32,568 nucleotides of DNA, taken from the NCBI GenBank assembly GCA_030167865.1, contig JALAGF010004044.1, forward strand, positions 1-32,568, read 5' to 3'. The notes below the pieces were generated by a model. The model was not told the DNA's origin. It worked only from the letters and a program-made list of their open reading frames with translations, and searched no databases. The DNA is from Craspedostauros australis (taxonomy: Eukaryota). The position numbers and the translations under genes were made by a program. Position 1 is the first letter of the stretch, and every line of letters starts with the position of its first letter. Below, piece after piece: positions 5,671 to 17,668 of this stretch.

Positions 5671-7386
5671 ATGGCGGCAGATTCCCTTTCACAGCTGCGA
5701 CGCAACGCCGTCGTAATGGCGATGGCAGTGACGTGCTTGCTGCAGGTGTCAGCATTCCATCACATCAGCATCCCAGCACCGACGGGCAGTCGCAGGTCTG
5801 TTGGCACACCGCCCCGATCATATTCCTCTGCTACCACTCGCCAGCATGGCCGATCAACCCAACTGTTCAATGGATACCAACCGCCGATCGAACAAAAGAT
5901 CGTACCAAAGACACGCAAGCCGCTGCTGCCCAAAATTGGAGACGTCGTGCGTTGTTACGATCTGGACGGTGGAAAGGCCGATGGCGAGGTCATCGTCGGG
6001 AAGATCTCCTTCATCTCGTCCTCCTCCAAGAAGCAATGGATCGCGGACATCACGGAGCTCGAGGACGTCGGGGACGGATACTTCGCAGAGTACTCATCGC
6101 GCAAGCGCCTGTCCAAGAAGGTCGAGCGATCCCTGCGCGACATCAGCCCCATCTCTGCGAGCTTCGTGCGCAGCGAGAATGCCTACAAGGTCCCCTTCAA
6201 CGGCGTGCAACCTGCCGTGCGGCAAGAGCAGTACGATCTCGACGACTACGAAGGTCCCATCCTTTCCATGGAATCCGTCGATCAGTCCGTCGTCGCGCGC
6301 GATGCCGAAACCTACTCCACCCTCAAGGGCAACCTCTTCAAGTACTCCTTCCTGACGGGTCTCGCCGGCACCGTCGTCACGGAGTTTGTGAAAGGCACGG
6401 AGGACGCCATCATCTACGCGGCGGGCGTGGCGGCAAGCTTGGGATACCTCTACTTCCTCTCCGTCAAGACGGACACCATCGCCAGTCCGGAGCGCAAGCT
6501 CGGAAGCCGGGTCGCCAATCTGCGGTTCCTCATGCCGCTGCTCGTTCTGACCGGCATCGCTGGGTTCAATGCCGTGCAAGGCCGCTCCATTTCTACCAGC
6601 AGCGACAATCCGTTCCAATTGGTCACGTCCGAACAGTACGCCGCCGCCATCATCGGTTTCCTGACCTACCGCATTCCCCTCTTCCTCAATCAGCTGCAAG
6701 AATTTCTGAAGGAAGATGCCTCCAGCGACGATGAAATGAATGTCCCGGTGGGAAGCTTGGGCGTTGCCATGCGATTGGCATCGCAAGATGGCGATGATGC
6801 GCAGAGCGCATTGACAACGCAACCCAACATCAAACCGTTGCTGTTGGTGTCCGGCCCCAAGGCCACCAAGCGTTCGGAACTTGTCCAGCGTCTCATTCAG
6901 CAGCAGGCCAGTGAGGACGTGGTGTACACGGCGCCGGCCACGATCGATCGCATGCAAGATGAAGCGACGTACGAGCGCTTGGAGAAGCGCAATGAGATCA
7001 TCGTGTCGGACGAACGATTCGCGATCTCCAAGGAGTCCATTCTCAAATCCATCCTGGACACGACTTCGGACAAGAACACTATCACGGTGCTCGATGCCGA
7101 CGTCGATACGGCCAAGTTGATTGCCGATCAGCTGCCGCGAAACTACGTCATCGGCGTGTGGGTTGGTCTCAAGAGCTTGAAGGAATACGAACAGAATCTG
7201 CCGCCGCGCAGCGACGACGATGAGGACAGCGAGGAGAACTCCGTGCGTGGGCAGTTGAAGCAGGTTGTGAACGACATTGAATACGGCATCTCATCAGGGC
7301 AGTTCGATTTCACAATATTGAGCGATGATATGGAAGTGGCATCGAAGGAGTTGCGGGAAGCTGCGGCGTACTGCTTGAAGGAATGA
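5671..7386 (+). CDS. Probably plastid-targeted protein: N-terminal beta-rich domain + AtpI/CGL160-like 4-TM domain + degenerate guanylate kinase-like domain
   Basis: The ATG at 5671 is followed by a signal peptide ending QVSA-FH and a Ser/Thr/Arg-rich transit peptide. About 6313-6690 reads YSTLK..SLGYLYFL..RFLMPLLVL..IIGFLTYRI, matching the AtpI/CGL160 pattern (Y-x-x-L, RLLVP, GFFTYK). About 6832-7370 reads LLVSGPKATKRSELVQRL / FAISKESI / VLDADV / FDFTILSDDMEVASKEL, in guanylate-kinase motif order. Confidence 0.75.
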   Translation: MAADSLSQLRRNAVVMAMAVTCLLQVSAFHHISIPAPTGSRRSVGTPPRSYSSATTRQHGRSTQLFNGYQPPIEQKIVPKTRKPLLPKIGDVVRCYDLDGGKADGEVIVGKISFISSSSKKQWIADITELEDVGDGYFAEYSSRKRLSKKVERSLRDISPISASFVRSENAYKVPFNGVQPAVRQEQYDLDDYEGPILSMESVDQSVVARDAETYSTLKGNLFKYSFLTGLAGTVVTEFVKGTEDAIIYAAGVAASLGYLYFLSVKTDTIASPERKLGSRVANLRFLMPLLVLTGIAGFNAVQGRSISTSSDNPFQLVTSEQYAAAIIGFLTYRIPLFLNQLQEFLKEDASSDDEMNVPVGSLGVAMRLASQDGDDAQSALTTQPNIKPLLLVSGPKATKRSELVQRLIQQQASEDVVYTAPATIDRMQDEATYERLEKRNEIIVSDERFAISKESILKSILDTTSDKNTITVLDADVDTAKLIADQLPRNYVIGVWVGLKSLKEYEQNLPPRSDDDEDSEENSVRGQLKQVVNDIEYGISSGQFDFTILSDDMEVASKELREAAAYCLKE

Positions 7387-7683: not shown

Positions 7684-9711
7684 TTAGTACGACACCATCC
7701 TGGTCCCGATCGTGTTGGGGAATCTCTCCGCGAGTTTGGCCTCCTCGTGGCCATCCTCCGAAGACATGACCAGCGATTTGTACTCCTCCCACTCCTCGTC
7801 ATTCAACAAGCACTGATCCAACGTCTTGCAGATCAGGTCTTGAGACTTGGCATCCGCCAACGTCTTGCCGATGAAAACAATCTCCTGTCGTCGATCGCCG
7901 ACTGACACGTTCAGATCGGTGGAGGTGGTGGTGCTGTCATCAAAATCAGACAGCACGTAGTCCACGGCATCCTCCGGCCACTGATTCCGCGGCAGCGTCA
8001 CCCACCAACGTCCCAGACTGTTCATCTCGTAGGTCTTGCCAGCATGGCTCCAGTACAATGCGGTGGATGCCGAATTGGCGCACCAAGCAAAGCCCTTGCT
8101 GCGGAGGACGCAAGCCATGGTATCTTGGACGGTCTGCGAAATGTCGAGCTCCGTTGCTGCCGTCGCTGCTTGGGTGGGAGCGCCCACCTTGATGGGCATG
8201 CTTCGCAAGAAGGAGACCAACCGATCCGGATGGAACGGTCGTCGCGCTGTGTACACGAAGGACCCGATGCCGAGCTGGTCGGTTGATGTGCTGTGGGAAT
8301 GGCTGTGAGAATGGTCGTGCGAATCATCGGTGCAGTTGGGATCGACGCAGGCATCACCGGCAGCGTTGCTGGAATGACTGTGCGAATGGGCGTGAGAGTG
8401 ATCATGCGAGTCATCGCTGCACTCGGGATCCACGCAGTCTTCCGCAGGGGAATGAGCATGGCTGTGGGAATGATCATGCGATGTGTCTGTGTGTTCCGGA
8501 TCCTCGCAAGCTTCCTCAGGTGTGCTTGCTGCATGTCCATGCGAATGATCATGACTGGACGATGATGGTGTGGCGGCGGCGATCGTCGTTGGCGCAGCCG
8601 CCACGAAATCTCTGTGATCATCGACAACTCCCGCCTGCACGACGCCTCTGCCCTTGGCAACACCGAGAACGGATTTGAGCGGTACATCTCCAAAGGACGT
8701 GATGAAGGTCTTGGCGCGTGGATTGATGGCGGTGGTGATTTGTTGGACGGTCTCCAGTTCCCCCGGCTCCACCAAGTCCACCTTGTTGATGATGATCAAA
8801 TCCGCCGTCTCCGTTTGGCTGATTAGCAGCTCTGCCACAGGATCGCCCTCATCGTCCGTCGCGCCATTCTTCATCCCCGTCATGACGGCCGACAGCAGCG
8901 CGGGTGGCATATCCTTCATCCAGTCCTCGAGAACCATCTCATCGTCGCCGTCGTCTTCGGGTTGCTCTCCGTCGCGATAAAACAGCTCCGGCGTGTCCTT
9001 GCGCGAAGTGAGCATGGAGCTTTCGAGGTGGGATTGGAAGGCGGAGCTGTCCACCAACGTGACCATGGTGTCCAGCCGGACTCGCTCCATGAGGGGCATG
9101 TCCATGAGCTCGGCCTCTTGGAATTTGGAACGGATCAGCTTGGGATCGGCCACGCCGGACATCTCCACGACGATGTGATGAAACTGCTGGCCGTCAGCCT
9201 TGAGGTCGTTGATGGTGACCAGTTCCGAGATGGAGGTGATGAGCTCGTCGGAGAGGGAGCAGCAGGCGCAGCCATTCTGCAGCTGGATCATGGCATCGCT
9301 GGCACTCTCGAAGTCCTGCCGCGCCACGAGCTTGCCGTCGATGTTGACGGAGGCGACGTCATTGACGATGACGGCGATGCGAAGGCCCTCCTTGTTTTGC
9401 AGCATGTTCTGGAGGAGGGAGGTCTTGCCGCTTCCGAGGAATCCCGACAGGATGGTGATCGGGATTGGCGCGGCGGGTGATGGCGGCGGCGCAGATGAGC
9501 CATTGGCGAGCGACATGGCGGTTCTGCTGTTCGTGCTCGTGCCGGTCTTGCCGATGGGATTGCTGATTGTGCTGCCGATGCCACCGATCGCAACGAGGGA
9601 TGAGACGTGATGGTGGTATTGGTGGGGCTGGAACGACGTCGCGGCAGCGAAGAGGCAGGGTAGGATGGATACCCAAGATCGCATGATCGCTCTCATTCGC
9701 GCCACCAGCAT
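7684..9711 (-). CDS. CobW/COG0523 (G3E) zinc-metallochaperone GTPase with His/Cys-rich linker and CobW_C domain; probable plastid presequence
   Basis: Walker A ITILSGFLGSGKTS, IAVIVND, metal-binding GCACC (CxCC), Walker B VVEMSGVADP, G4 NKVD, a His-rich tract, and CobW_C motifs SFVYTARRPFHP, LRSKGFAW, GDRRQEIVFIG. The N-terminal signal peptide ends AATS-FQP. The start could be one of the next Met codons. Confidence 0.93.
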   Translation of the reverse strand: MLVARMRAIMRSWVSILPCLFAAATSFQPHQYHHHVSSLVAIGGIGSTISNPIGKTGTSTNSRTAMSLANGSSAPPPSPAAPIPITILSGFLGSGKTSLLQNMLQNKEGLRIAVIVNDVASVNIDGKLVARQDFESASDAMIQLQNGCACCSLSDELITSISELVTINDLKADGQQFHHIVVEMSGVADPKLIRSKFQEAELMDMPLMERVRLDTMVTLVDSSAFQSHLESSMLTSRKDTPELFYRDGEQPEDDGDDEMVLEDWMKDMPPALLSAVMTGMKNGATDDEGDPVAELLISQTETADLIIINKVDLVEPGELETVQQITTAINPRAKTFITSFGDVPLKSVLGVAKGRGVVQAGVVDDHRDFVAAAPTTIAAATPSSSSHDHSHGHAASTPEEACEDPEHTDTSHDHSHSHAHSPAEDCVDPECSDDSHDHSHAHSHSHSSNAAGDACVDPNCTDDSHDHSHSHSHSTSTDQLGIGSFVYTARRPFHPDRLVSFLRSMPIKVGAPTQAATAATELDISQTVQDTMACVLRSKGFAWCANSASTALYWSHAGKTYEMNSLGRWWVTLPRNQWPEDAVDYVLSDFDDSTTTSTDLNVSVGDRRQEIVFIGKTLADAKSQDLICKTLDQCLLNDEEWEEYKSLVMSSEDGHEEAKLAERFPNTIGTRMVSY

Positions 9712-10615: not shown

Positions 10616-13659
<3,044 letters not shown>

Positions 13660-15955: not shown

Positions 15956-17668
15956 TTAGAACACAGGCTTCGGGCCACTGATCAGAGACTTACCTCTGAG
16001 GCGGCGAGAAGGGCAGTTGGTGGGTCTGTAACGCAGCTGGGCGATGCATCCAGAACCGTCGTATGTCACGCTGGTCTTTGCGATGTTCGTCCTTGTTACC
16101 CACAGGTCCGTGAGTCCATTGTGGCCGCTCTTCAGCGCAAGTTGTGCGAGCCCAGCGTCCGCTGACGCTGCCCCCACCGGCCAGAAGTTCATCTCGGGTC
16201 TGTCTTCGTTGTCGTCAATGTCGAGGAATCTTCCCATCTCAACTGTCACGCCTCCCAACTTCGCCGTGTCGAAGATGAAAGAAATGGTTCCACCTCCGCC
16301 AATGTCGTCAGCGCACGTCCTCTTGTTCTCTTGGATGATGAGGACCTTTCCGATCGGGACCTCTGGGCAGTTGGCGAATGGGTTTGCAGATCTGTCGCTC
16401 TTGAGCGGCGCGCCTCCAGCACCCACGCCTGGGCCTGGAACGGGGCAGCCTTCGTTGGGACTTCCCAGATCTGGATCGCCGTGATTTCCACTCTTGGCGG
16501 GGTCGCACATGGGGTTGTTGAATTGGAACTTGCTATGGTCGCTGGGATAGCCGGTTGGCTTGGATGTGTCGAAGACGCGGGCAGCTCCGGTGGATTCATT
16601 GCTGTTCCAACCGCTGCACGACATGGGGCTGGCAGGGTCAAAGTTGCAGTAGCAATTGAGCTGGCCAGTGGTGCACCCTTCCGATGGTCTCGGGGTGTAC
16701 TTGTTGCCAGCAGTACTCTCCGCCACGACCATGACTCCCTTCGAGGTCCACCATTCGTCGTAGATGAAGCCGGCGTCTGGAAGCTCGTTGAAATCGAGGA
16801 TTTCGATGGGGCAAACACCCGGAGGAAGGGTGCAGTTGGGCTTGCATCTGCTACCTGAGTTGTCGTTCCTGCCGCCTTCGTCGCATTCCTCACCAGGGTC
16901 GACGACTCCATCACCGCACGTCTCGGGAATGGGGATCTTGCACTCGTTGGTGCAGTTGTCGTTGTCGATCTTGTTGCCATCGTCGCACTCCTCGTCGCCC
17001 TGCATGATTCCGTCACCGCACTTGGCGTTCGTGCACAGGTTGGTGCAGGAATCATCGTTGATCTTGTTACCATCGTCGCATTCCTCGCCGGGATTTACTG
17101 TGCCGTCACCGCAGCTAGAGAATGGGGTGGGATCATCGCAGGTCGGGACGCACTTGAGCAAGTAGGTGAACTTGAGGACCGCGTATTCGAGGGAGAGGTC
17201 GGCATGACAACACTGCGGAACTTTGCCAGTTCCGATGGTCTTGTCGATGTCGGGATCACGCACGAAGAGGGTGACAACCGATTCAGGCTTGGTCTCGAAG
17301 CACTGTGCAGTGAGGGTTGCGCCCACGTCCTGGTTGGCCGCAATGTCGGCGAACATCTCACAGTTGACACCGCCGATACTGTTGTTCTCGGAGTACTCGG
17401 TGTAGATCTCGGCGGTGGAACTGCCGTCCTGTGACCACACGTTGTGGACCTTGAAGGAGACGGAGCTGGTGTCCTGGCTCACGATCTCGATTGGTGCTCC
17501 CGAGTATTGGAAGTCGCTGGAGTGGAGCAACTGATAGTCCAACGGGCATGGCTCCGAGTTGGATCCTCCGGTGTCAGAGATGGTGTCGAACATGCCAAGG
17601 ACGCCATTGCCGCCGATCTGGCTCAAAAGGAGCGACCCCAGAAGAGTCTTAGCCTTCATGCTGAGCAT
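15956..17668 (-). CDS. Secreted cysteine-rich mosaic protein with three Myxococcus cysteine-rich (DUF4215-like) repeats
   Basis: N-terminal hydrophobic signal (MKAKTLLGSLLLSQIGGNGVLG); Cys-rich domain containing VPQCCH..KCVPTC; three CGDG..GEECD(D/E)G..N..C repeats (17113-16832); Gly/Pro/Asp-rich C-terminal domain. A strong donor site (AG|GTAAGT) at 15993 means the last few residues may come from another exon. Confidence 0.82.
   Translation of the reverse strand: MLSMKAKTLLGSLLLSQIGGNGVLGMFDTISDTGGSNSEPCPLDYQLLHSSDFQYSGAPIEIVSQDTSSVSFKVHNVWSQDGSSTAEIYTEYSENNSIGGVNCEMFADIAANQDVGATLTAQCFETKPESVVTLFVRDPDIDKTIGTGKVPQCCHADLSLEYAVLKFTYLLKCVPTCDDPTPFSSCGDGTVNPGEECDDGNKINDDSCTNLCTNAKCGDGIMQGDEECDDGNKIDNDNCTNECKIPIPETCGDGVVDPGEECDEGGRNDNSGSRCKPNCTLPPGVCPIEILDFNELPDAGFIYDEWWTSKGVMVVAESTAGNKYTPRPSEGCTTGQLNCYCNFDPASPMSCSGWNSNESTGAARVFDTSKPTGYPSDHSKFQFNNPMCDPAKSGNHGDPDLGSPNEGCPVPGPGVGAGGAPLKSDRSANPFANCPEVPIGKVLIIQENKRTCADDIGGGGTISFIFDTAKLGGVTVEMGRFLDIDDNEDRPEMNFWPVGAASADAGLAQLALKSGHNGLTDLWVTRTNIAKTSVTYDGSGCIAQLRYRPTNCPSRRLRGKSLISGPKPVF

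Follow-up and report, generated by a model that had tools for sequence, protein, structure and literature searches.

CGL160 takes its name from being 'conserved only in the green lineage'. In the parts of Reiter et al. (PMC9806626) drawn on here, CGL160 is presented as the only known chloroplast CFo assembly factor; it promotes c-ring formation in Arabidopsis, and its membrane domain can be replaced by Atp1 from Synechocystis. The same parts place the N terminus of the Arabidopsis protein (AtCGL160) on the stromal side by protease protection and assign its CF1-beta-binding domain, which is called specific to the green lineage, to residues 29-105. The subject of this report is a gene of the diatom Craspedostauros australis, located at positions 5671-7386 on the forward strand of contig JALAGF010004044.1 (assembly GCA_030167865.1); the whole stretch analysed, positions 1 to 32,568 of the contig, is referred to as the window. 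The gene probably encodes what corresponds, in the red lineage, to CGL160/Atp1, a factor for the assembly of the thylakoid ATP synthase, with a guanylate kinase (GK) domain kept as a non-catalytic binding surface, a reading in which we place moderate confidence.

The encoded protein (P0001) shares the four-helix membrane domain, matched above threshold by the Pfam profile CGL160_C, with CGL160 (Arabidopsis At2g31040; Chlamydomonas CGLD22) and with Atp1/UncI. Like CGL160, it is nucleus-encoded and has a presequence, predicted to be of plastid type, and an additional soluble part on the stromal side, predicted in P0001 and described for the N-terminal part of AtCGL160 (AtCGL160N) in the sections of PMC9806626 used here. 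In contrast to CGL160, Pfam finds no green-type N-terminal CF1-beta-binding domain in P0001; instead, an SH3/Tudor-like barrel lies ahead of the membrane domain and a GK-fold domain lies behind it. Atp1 is without any soluble domains, whereas P0001 has two. With guanylate kinase itself (EC 2.7.4.8; yeast 1gky, human GUK1), P0001 shares the fold and the motif order over nearly the whole profile, but it is without the Walker A Gly-Lys, 14 residues of the loop that binds guanosine monophosphate (GMP), and the canonical arginine pattern of the LID. Within the family, the red-algal members have the same three modules with a canonical GK domain, whereas the diatom form appears to be a pseudo-kinase.

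No paper describing a fusion of CGL160/Atp1 with guanylate kinase was found in a literature search whose scope left out subscription journals and supplements; the one paper in it that brought CGL160 and guanylate kinase together concerns the rice YL1 gene. The automatic database names carried by the relatives were 'CGL160/ATPI domain-containing protein', 'Guanylate kinase-like domain-containing protein' and, at JGI, 'guanylate kinase'.

Modules of the encoded protein

The features of the gene, all on the forward strand, were as follows (aa, amino acids).

5671-7386, forward strand: whole gene (protein P0001), one open reading frame (ORF) of 571 codons (571 aa) with its stop codon within the range, from the ORF listing and translation
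5671-5754, forward strand: predicted signal peptide, aa 1-28, cleavage predicted at VSA/F29, from the hydrophobic peak centred on aa 20-27 and the conserved Ala/Phe
5755-5880, forward strand: transit-peptide-like region, aa 29-70, rich in Ser/Thr/Arg/Pro and without Asp or Glu, read from the sequence
5923-6255, forward strand: N-terminal beta domain, an SH3/Tudor/BAH-like barrel with a beta extension, aa 85-195, from the domain model and conservation
6283-6723, forward strand: four-helix membrane domain, aa 205-351, from Pfam CGL160_C and AlphaFold2 helices
6724-6834, forward strand: acidic, poorly conserved linker, aa 352-388, with a predicted local distance difference test score (pLDDT) below 50 at aa 354-361 and 374-383
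6835-7380, forward strand: GK-fold domain, apparently decayed in its catalytic motifs, aa 389-570, from PF00625, Foldseek, PDB sequence matches and TIGR03263
6850-6876, forward strand: Walker A remnant S394-GPKATKR-S402, canonical GxxxxGK[ST] changed to GxxxxKRS, from alignments
6949-6954, forward strand: junction R427/M428, site of the gap in the GMP-binding loop, from an alignment of 17 selected family members

An earlier reading of this DNA, made from the letters and a list of ORFs and referred to here as the sequence-only reading, had described a single frame at 5671-7386, and the frame does run uninterrupted from an ATG start, with no internal stops. It is not a chance ORF, because 252 database proteins match P0001 at E<=0.001; the top match has 49% identity (E 3.2e-146), and the homologues align across 85-98% of its length. 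A gene without introns fits the end-to-end alignment with full-length relatives. Relatives of about 555-566 aa are present as MMETSP transcripts labelled 'type:complete', with all modules within one ORF, so in those relatives all modules lie on one mRNA. A sequencing-run contig covering 6547-7700 and extending further was considered as RNA evidence and set aside, since it spans the stop codon and the intergenic region and is probably DNA. The AlphaFold2 model of the full-length protein had a pLDDT of 83.2 and a predicted template modelling score (pTM) of 0.52, the latter leaving the arrangement of the domains open.

The plastid-type presequence proposed in the sequence-only reading was recovered as a set of predicted features. 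The hydrophobic core of the signal peptide (aa 13-24) is followed by VSA and then F29, and among 121 relatives Ala was present at aligned position 28 in 50-59% and Phe at aligned position 29 in 70-79%. In diatom targeting, a Phe directly behind the signal-peptide cleavage site is the mark of plastid import. The acid-free, Ser/Thr/Arg-rich stretch at aa 29-70 was modelled as disordered (pLDDT <50), and mean pairwise identity in the presequence was 21% among diatom-type relatives. A bipartite plastid presequence of the diatom type is predicted, with residues 1-28 as its first half.

The N-terminal beta domain, which was absent from the sequence-only reading, was modelled with a pLDDT of 90.8 and a pTM of 0.82. 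Residues P87, G90, D91 and G110 of this barrel were at least 90% conserved in an alignment of 55 red-lineage rows, red algae included. A Pfam search gave no match for aa 1-207, a Foldseek search of the barrel against PDB gave none at E<=0.001, and a search of the ESM Atlas with the barrel returned no usable match. With VIA-align, the best match was a Tudor domain (Z 7.1, root mean square deviation 1.8 over 57 residues), followed by BAH, chromo, KOW and CAP-Gly domains; no chain reached Z>=8, and the best Z lies within the range that the tool gives for unassigned models or background. As modelled, aa 85-195 is a generic SH3-like barrel with no family assigned.

A block of four transmembrane (TM) helices related to AtpI/CGL160 had been placed at about 6313-6690 (aa 215-340). 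Both the block and the relationship were borne out by CGL160_C (PF24763), which matched aa 208-341 (window 6292-6693) with an E value of 1.4e-9 and 38.8 bits against a gathering score of 34.2, the match spanning profile positions 6-131 of 133. AlphaFold2 placed helices at aa 205-241, 243-268, 275-303 and 320-351, mostly with pLDDT >90. With a strict threshold, a hydropathy scan detected helices 2, 3 and 4 but not helix 1, which is less hydrophobic. Across the family, CGL160_C was matched in 47 of the 55 aligned members at E<=0.001, and Y215, G252, Y259, D268 and G329 were invariant in the 55 rows. On this sequence evidence, the membrane domain shares ancestry with cyanobacterial Atp1 and with the membrane domain at the C terminus of CGL160. 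There are four Lys/Arg residues in the loop between helices 2 and 3, compared with one or two in the other loops. An even number of helices puts both termini on the same side of the membrane as this most basic loop, and the N-terminal domain of AtCGL160 is stromal according to the portion of PMC9806626 cited above; the barrel and the GK-like domain are therefore both expected on the stromal side. The linker that follows the membrane domain had a mean pairwise identity of 36%.

The tail of the protein had been read as a GK fold. In agreement with that reading, a Foldseek search with the GK-like domain (pLDDT mostly >90) gave 127 matches at E<=0.001 (best 5.9e-10), the top ones all being GMP kinases, with target TM-scores of 0.60-0.69 for the GMP-kinase matches. 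The Pfam profile Guanylate_kin (PF00625) matched aa 392-564 (profile positions 6-178 of 182, E 2.1e-5) at 24.7 bits, just below its 25.2-bit cutoff, and all four PDB matches to the P0001 sequence were guanylate kinases (best E 0.001). A profile of the whole family matched yeast GK 1gky at E 6.6e-40, the yeast and mammalian enzymes at 6.6e-40 to 2.5e-38 and bacterial GKs at about 1e-28 to 1e-24. The GK part of the family scored 135-140 bits against yeast, mouse and human GUK1, compared with about 88-102 bits against bacterial Gmk; the sequences hint at a kinase part of eukaryotic host type and a membrane part of cyanobacterial descent. The sequence-only reading had named two homology results that would speak against it, the lack of any CGL160 match and the lack of a GK fold; in both cases the opposite was found.

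Analysis of the catalytic motifs revealed extensive loss. The eroded P-loop SGPKATKRS noted earlier is present at S394-S402, with both the second Gly and the Lys of Walker A replaced. Loss of the GMP-binding motif, which had also been claimed, was upheld, but the ungapped replacement of TTRxxRxxE by ATIDRMQDE was not: alignment through intermediate sequences instead gives a deletion at R427/M428, where 14 residues are absent relative to the red-algal copies, comprising the rest of TTR-xx-R-xx-E together with DY-x-F. The second Arg and the Glu of the GMP-binding motif and the Tyr of DY-x-F are removed by this deletion. The LID arginines and the D-x-D-x-QG, PPS and R-x-x-RGTE segments are altered in the alignment with canonical copies, and the guanylate-kinase equivalog model TIGR03263 gave P0001 23.6 bits against a cutoff of 160.45. 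Together, these changes argue strongly that the GK-like domain of P0001 cannot work as a GMP kinase, as the pseudo-kinase reading had proposed.

The GK domains of MAGUK proteins (Dlg, PSD-95, MPP/p55) are likewise a non-catalytic yet conserved GK fold, with an SH3-like barrel in the same protein, and MAGUK chains were among the matches (p55 with the family profile, E 1.4e-23; 3ney with Foldseek). In the part of PMC3335814 relied on here, MAGUK GK domains are described as keeping the GMP-binding subdomain, along with an Arg and two Tyr phosphate contacts that are used for phosphopeptides. In P0001, by contrast, the first Tyr falls in the deleted segment, the second is Phe450 and only R427 is left, as judged from a sequence alignment and not from superposed structures. 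Packing of the SH3 and GK domains as a single unit is a further MAGUK feature; in P0001 the barrel and the GK domain are parted by the membrane domain, and at the pTM given above for the full-length model the two may or may not pack together. The MAGUK analogy drawn in the sequence-only reading is therefore weak, though useful as a picture of an enzyme converted into a binding domain; the same mechanism is unlikely, since the GMP-binding subdomain is partly deleted in P0001. The decay of the GK domain in P0001 looks independent of that in MAGUKs, with no common descent.

Guanylate kinase domains across the red lineage

A scan of 1.84 billion representative proteins returned only 215 clusters at E<=0.001, many of them full-length matches with 24-37% identity. 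Full-length relatives were found in pennate diatoms (Seminavis, Fistulifera, Cylindrotheca, Amphora and Mayamaea), in the centric diatom Thalassiosira oceanica, in the pelagophytes Pelagophyceae sp. CCMP2097 and Aureoumbra, in Chrysoparadoxa, the brown alga Discosporangium, Phaeothamnion and the eustigmatophyte Nannochloropsis/Microchloropsis, and in the red algae Compsopogon caeruleus and Porphyridium purpureum. The three-module architecture thus runs across the red lineage and is not unique to C. australis, and the search of diatom and ochrophyte proteins suggested with the sequence-only reading, MMETSP included, did yield the same fusion at full length. Family matches of 237-405 aa were considered as forms lacking the GK domain and rejected; they are probably partial gene calls, because one 381-aa cluster also contains a 637-aa protein of T. 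oceanica. One Bacillariaceae sp. protein of 780 aa (P0100) has a protein-kinase domain (PF00069) ahead of CGL160_C; this may be another fusion or the result of gene models having been merged.

Guanylate_kin was matched in 21 of the 55 aligned members at E<=0.001, with a best value of 2.5e-56. In the red-algal copies and some further ones, GPSGVGK[ST]T, S-x-TTR-xx-R-xx-E, DY-x-F, YGTS, D-x-D-x-QG, PPS and R-x-x-RGTE were all present. Against the TIGR03263 cutoff, Compsopogon scored 211 bits and Porphyridium 187, and two further copies without an organism name scored 202.5 and 195.2; the brown alga scored 68.3, Nannochloropsis 62.8 and the pelagophyte 28.7, and of three diatom copies two scored 25.7 and 20.7 and one gave no match. 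By these scores, the red-algal copies were shown to rank as true guanylate kinases and the ochrophyte copies to decay stepwise. The diatom and pelagophyte copies have the same 14-residue gap in the GMP loop in the alignment.

A P-loop census was carried out on 282 family proteins, 222 of which included the P-loop region. The form GxxxxGR was found in 151 of the 222, GxxxxGK[ST] in 48, GxxxxGK followed by another residue in 10 and other forms in 13; GPKATKRS, the form in P0001, was seen once. Among the 48 copies with GxxxxGK[ST], 14 also had a TTRxxRxxE-like loop and 30 were without the GMP loop. Conserved loss of the P-loop, for which the sequence-only reading had suggested a search, is seen in most of the family but not in these 48.

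A tree was built from the barrel and TM columns only, the GK columns being left out, by a quick IQ-TREE run with branch support from the Shimodaira-Hasegawa-like approximate likelihood ratio test (SH-aLRT) only, and was rooted by choice on two red algae. The canonical GK forms were basal, every decayed form fell in one clade of 46 rows (SH-aLRT 97), and P0001 grouped with Seminavis, Fistulifera and Cylindrotheca. Given the rooting on red algae, the direction of decay, from enzyme to pseudo-enzyme, was shown by these sequences. The tree needs at least three state changes in the GMP loop and at least eight in the P-loop, counts that are rough, given the very long branches of three rows and the lack of support for 19 of the 52 inner branches. 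A separate clade of six proteins (P0178, P0182, P0184, P0189, P0194 and P0197; SH-aLRT 99) has a P-loop of its own, GP[RKY]AAGR, and is without the GMP loop.

Conservation was then compared among the modules. Over 121 diatom-type rows, mean pairwise identity was 57% in the GK-like domain, 58% in the barrel and 57% in the TM domain. Because the GK-like domain is as conserved as the barrel and the TM domain, and far more so than the linker or the presequence, it is probably kept for a non-catalytic job among the diatom-type copies.

Candidate role and alternative explanations

Under the preferred reading, that of a CGL160/Atp1 counterpart with a non-catalytic GK domain, the bipartite presequence would carry the protein into the diatom plastid, where the four-helix Atp1/CGL160-type domain would reside in the thylakoid membrane and, by homology with Arabidopsis CGL160 and Synechocystis Atp1, would help CFo c-ring assembly. 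The barrel and the GK-fold domain would lie on the stromal side, in place of the seemingly unrelated N-terminal CF1-recruiting domain of green CGL160, and would act as binding surfaces that might conceivably recruit CF1 through subunit beta, as the green N domain does. The distribution of the family shows that a real guanylate kinase, of eukaryote type by its matches, was fused to the membrane module before red algae and red-derived plastids split. In red algae the fused GK still has the score of an enzyme; in ochrophytes, as the alignment and tree show, the GMP loop was lost and then the P-loop lysine, the latter several times. The GK-like domain was most likely retained as a protein-binding or scaffolding surface for ATP-synthase biogenesis.

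Several points weigh against this reading. The plastid and thylakoid location is predicted from sequence only. The role in ATP-synthase assembly is assigned by homology, being carried over from relatives, and the CGL160_C match is modest at 38.8 bits. The 48 intact P-loops include some of the diatom type, so nucleotide binding or an altered activity may persist in the family. Finally, P0001 is an outlier in the very domain at issue: its GK-like domain departs at 18 of 61 conserved positions (defined as those shared by at least 85% of the other rows), compared with a median of three, which ranks it 121st of 121.

This outlier status could mean that the GK-like domain is losing its function in the Craspedostauros lineage, as a decaying vestige, which would leave the barrel and the CGL160-type membrane domain as the only working parts of the protein. 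The departures of P0001 elsewhere are ordinary (two of 39 positions in the barrel and four of 46 in the TM domain), the identity of its GK-like domain to relatives is 42% compared with the family mean of 57%, and its P-loop form is unique in the census, all of which favour a vestige. Nevertheless, we consider this explanation unlikely: the reading frame is unbroken throughout the 182 residues of the domain, the model has a pLDDT mostly >90, roughly half of the 18 substitutions are conservative (L/I, V/I, E/D, F/Y), and none of the full-length relatives examined, from diatoms, pelagophytes and brown algae, has lost the domain. For the first three of these reasons, the GK-like domain of P0001 is read as a non-catalytic domain that has drifted further, and not as a dying one.

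Another explanation, that the GK-like domain has remained an enzyme but with a different substrate or an altered mechanism, would make the protein a kinase for nucleotides or small molecules, held at the thylakoid by a membrane module that serves mainly as its anchor. Since the red-algal copies pass the guanylate-kinase equivalog cutoff, the ancestor would have been just such an anchored enzyme; 30 of the 48 copies with an intact P-loop are without the GMP loop, a combination that would suit an altered enzyme, as would conservation of the domain at the level of the rest of the protein in diatom-type copies. This explanation appears very unlikely for P0001, however, in which the Gly and Lys of Walker A are replaced, the acceptor-binding loop is 14 residues short and the D-x-D-x-QG, PPS and R-x-x-RGTE segments are changed. 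Across the family, the catalytic Lys is Arg in 151 of 222 P-loops, and the invariant Y215, Y259 and D268 of the membrane domain exceed the needs of a plain anchor. The CGL160 likeness might alternatively reflect descent only, the red-lineage membrane module having a job outside the ATP synthase, either in another step of thylakoid biogenesis or in guanylate-nucleotide metabolism at the membrane. The CGL160_C match is significant but modest, the soluble domains are wholly unlike the N-terminal CF1-binding domain that the cited parts of Reiter et al. (PMC9806626) call green-lineage specific, and fusion to a working GK in red algae suggests an ancestral link to nucleotide metabolism. We regard a different job as quite unlikely, in that cyanobacterial Atp1 replaces the Arabidopsis membrane domain despite great divergence, according to the same parts of that source, and the function of the module therefore looks stable.

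A more far-reaching proposal, which we hold as doubtful, is that the red-lineage fusion of a working GK with Atp1/CGL160 tied guanylate-nucleotide supply, and possibly control by guanosine tetraphosphate (ppGpp), to CFoCF1 biogenesis. The ochrophyte kinase would then have become a non-catalytic stromal module that, with the barrel, recruits CF1 or senses nucleotides; this would be a second independent answer to the job of the green N domain and, beside MAGUKs, a second independent case of a GK enzyme turned binding domain. A nucleotide-signalling link is thinkable for the red-algal enzyme form, because inhibition of the plastid GK by ppGpp is reported for plants in the portion of a review used here (PMC10107265).

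In diatoms and elsewhere in the red lineage, the CGL160 membrane module is joined to entirely different soluble parts, and the gene is a concrete candidate for a role in assembling the ATP synthase of plastids that account for much of marine photosynthesis. In addition, the family forms a graded natural series from working enzyme to pseudo-enzyme, which starts in red algae, passes through brown algae and eustigmatophytes and ends in pelagophytes and diatoms. This series could reveal why a dead kinase domain is retained.

Surroundings of the gene

The gene lies in a dense, nuclear-type region, in which no neighbour suggests a functional link. Upstream are a 430-aa ORF without assignment and a large AAA_16 protein. 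The other features were as follows.

7684-9711, reverse strand: CobW/COG0523-type GTPase of 675 aa, convergent and downstream, starting 298 bases past the stop of the gene (cobW E 1.1e-44, CobW_C E 7.9e-16)
11359-12588 and 12703-13659, forward strand: HSP70 gene in two ORFs that match profile positions 17-314 and 336-598 (profile length 599)
15956-17668, reverse strand: 570-aa ORF with DUF7633 and DUF4215 matches

The CobW-type neighbour has a hydrophobic N terminus and, between its two domains, a long His-/Asp-rich insert with repeated HDHSH-type runs; its sequence suggests a metal-chaperone GTPase whose insert would bind metal. The two HSP70 ORFs lie about 114 bases apart, and this gap is probably a short intron, which would mean that introns occur in the window although the gene at 5671-7386 has none.

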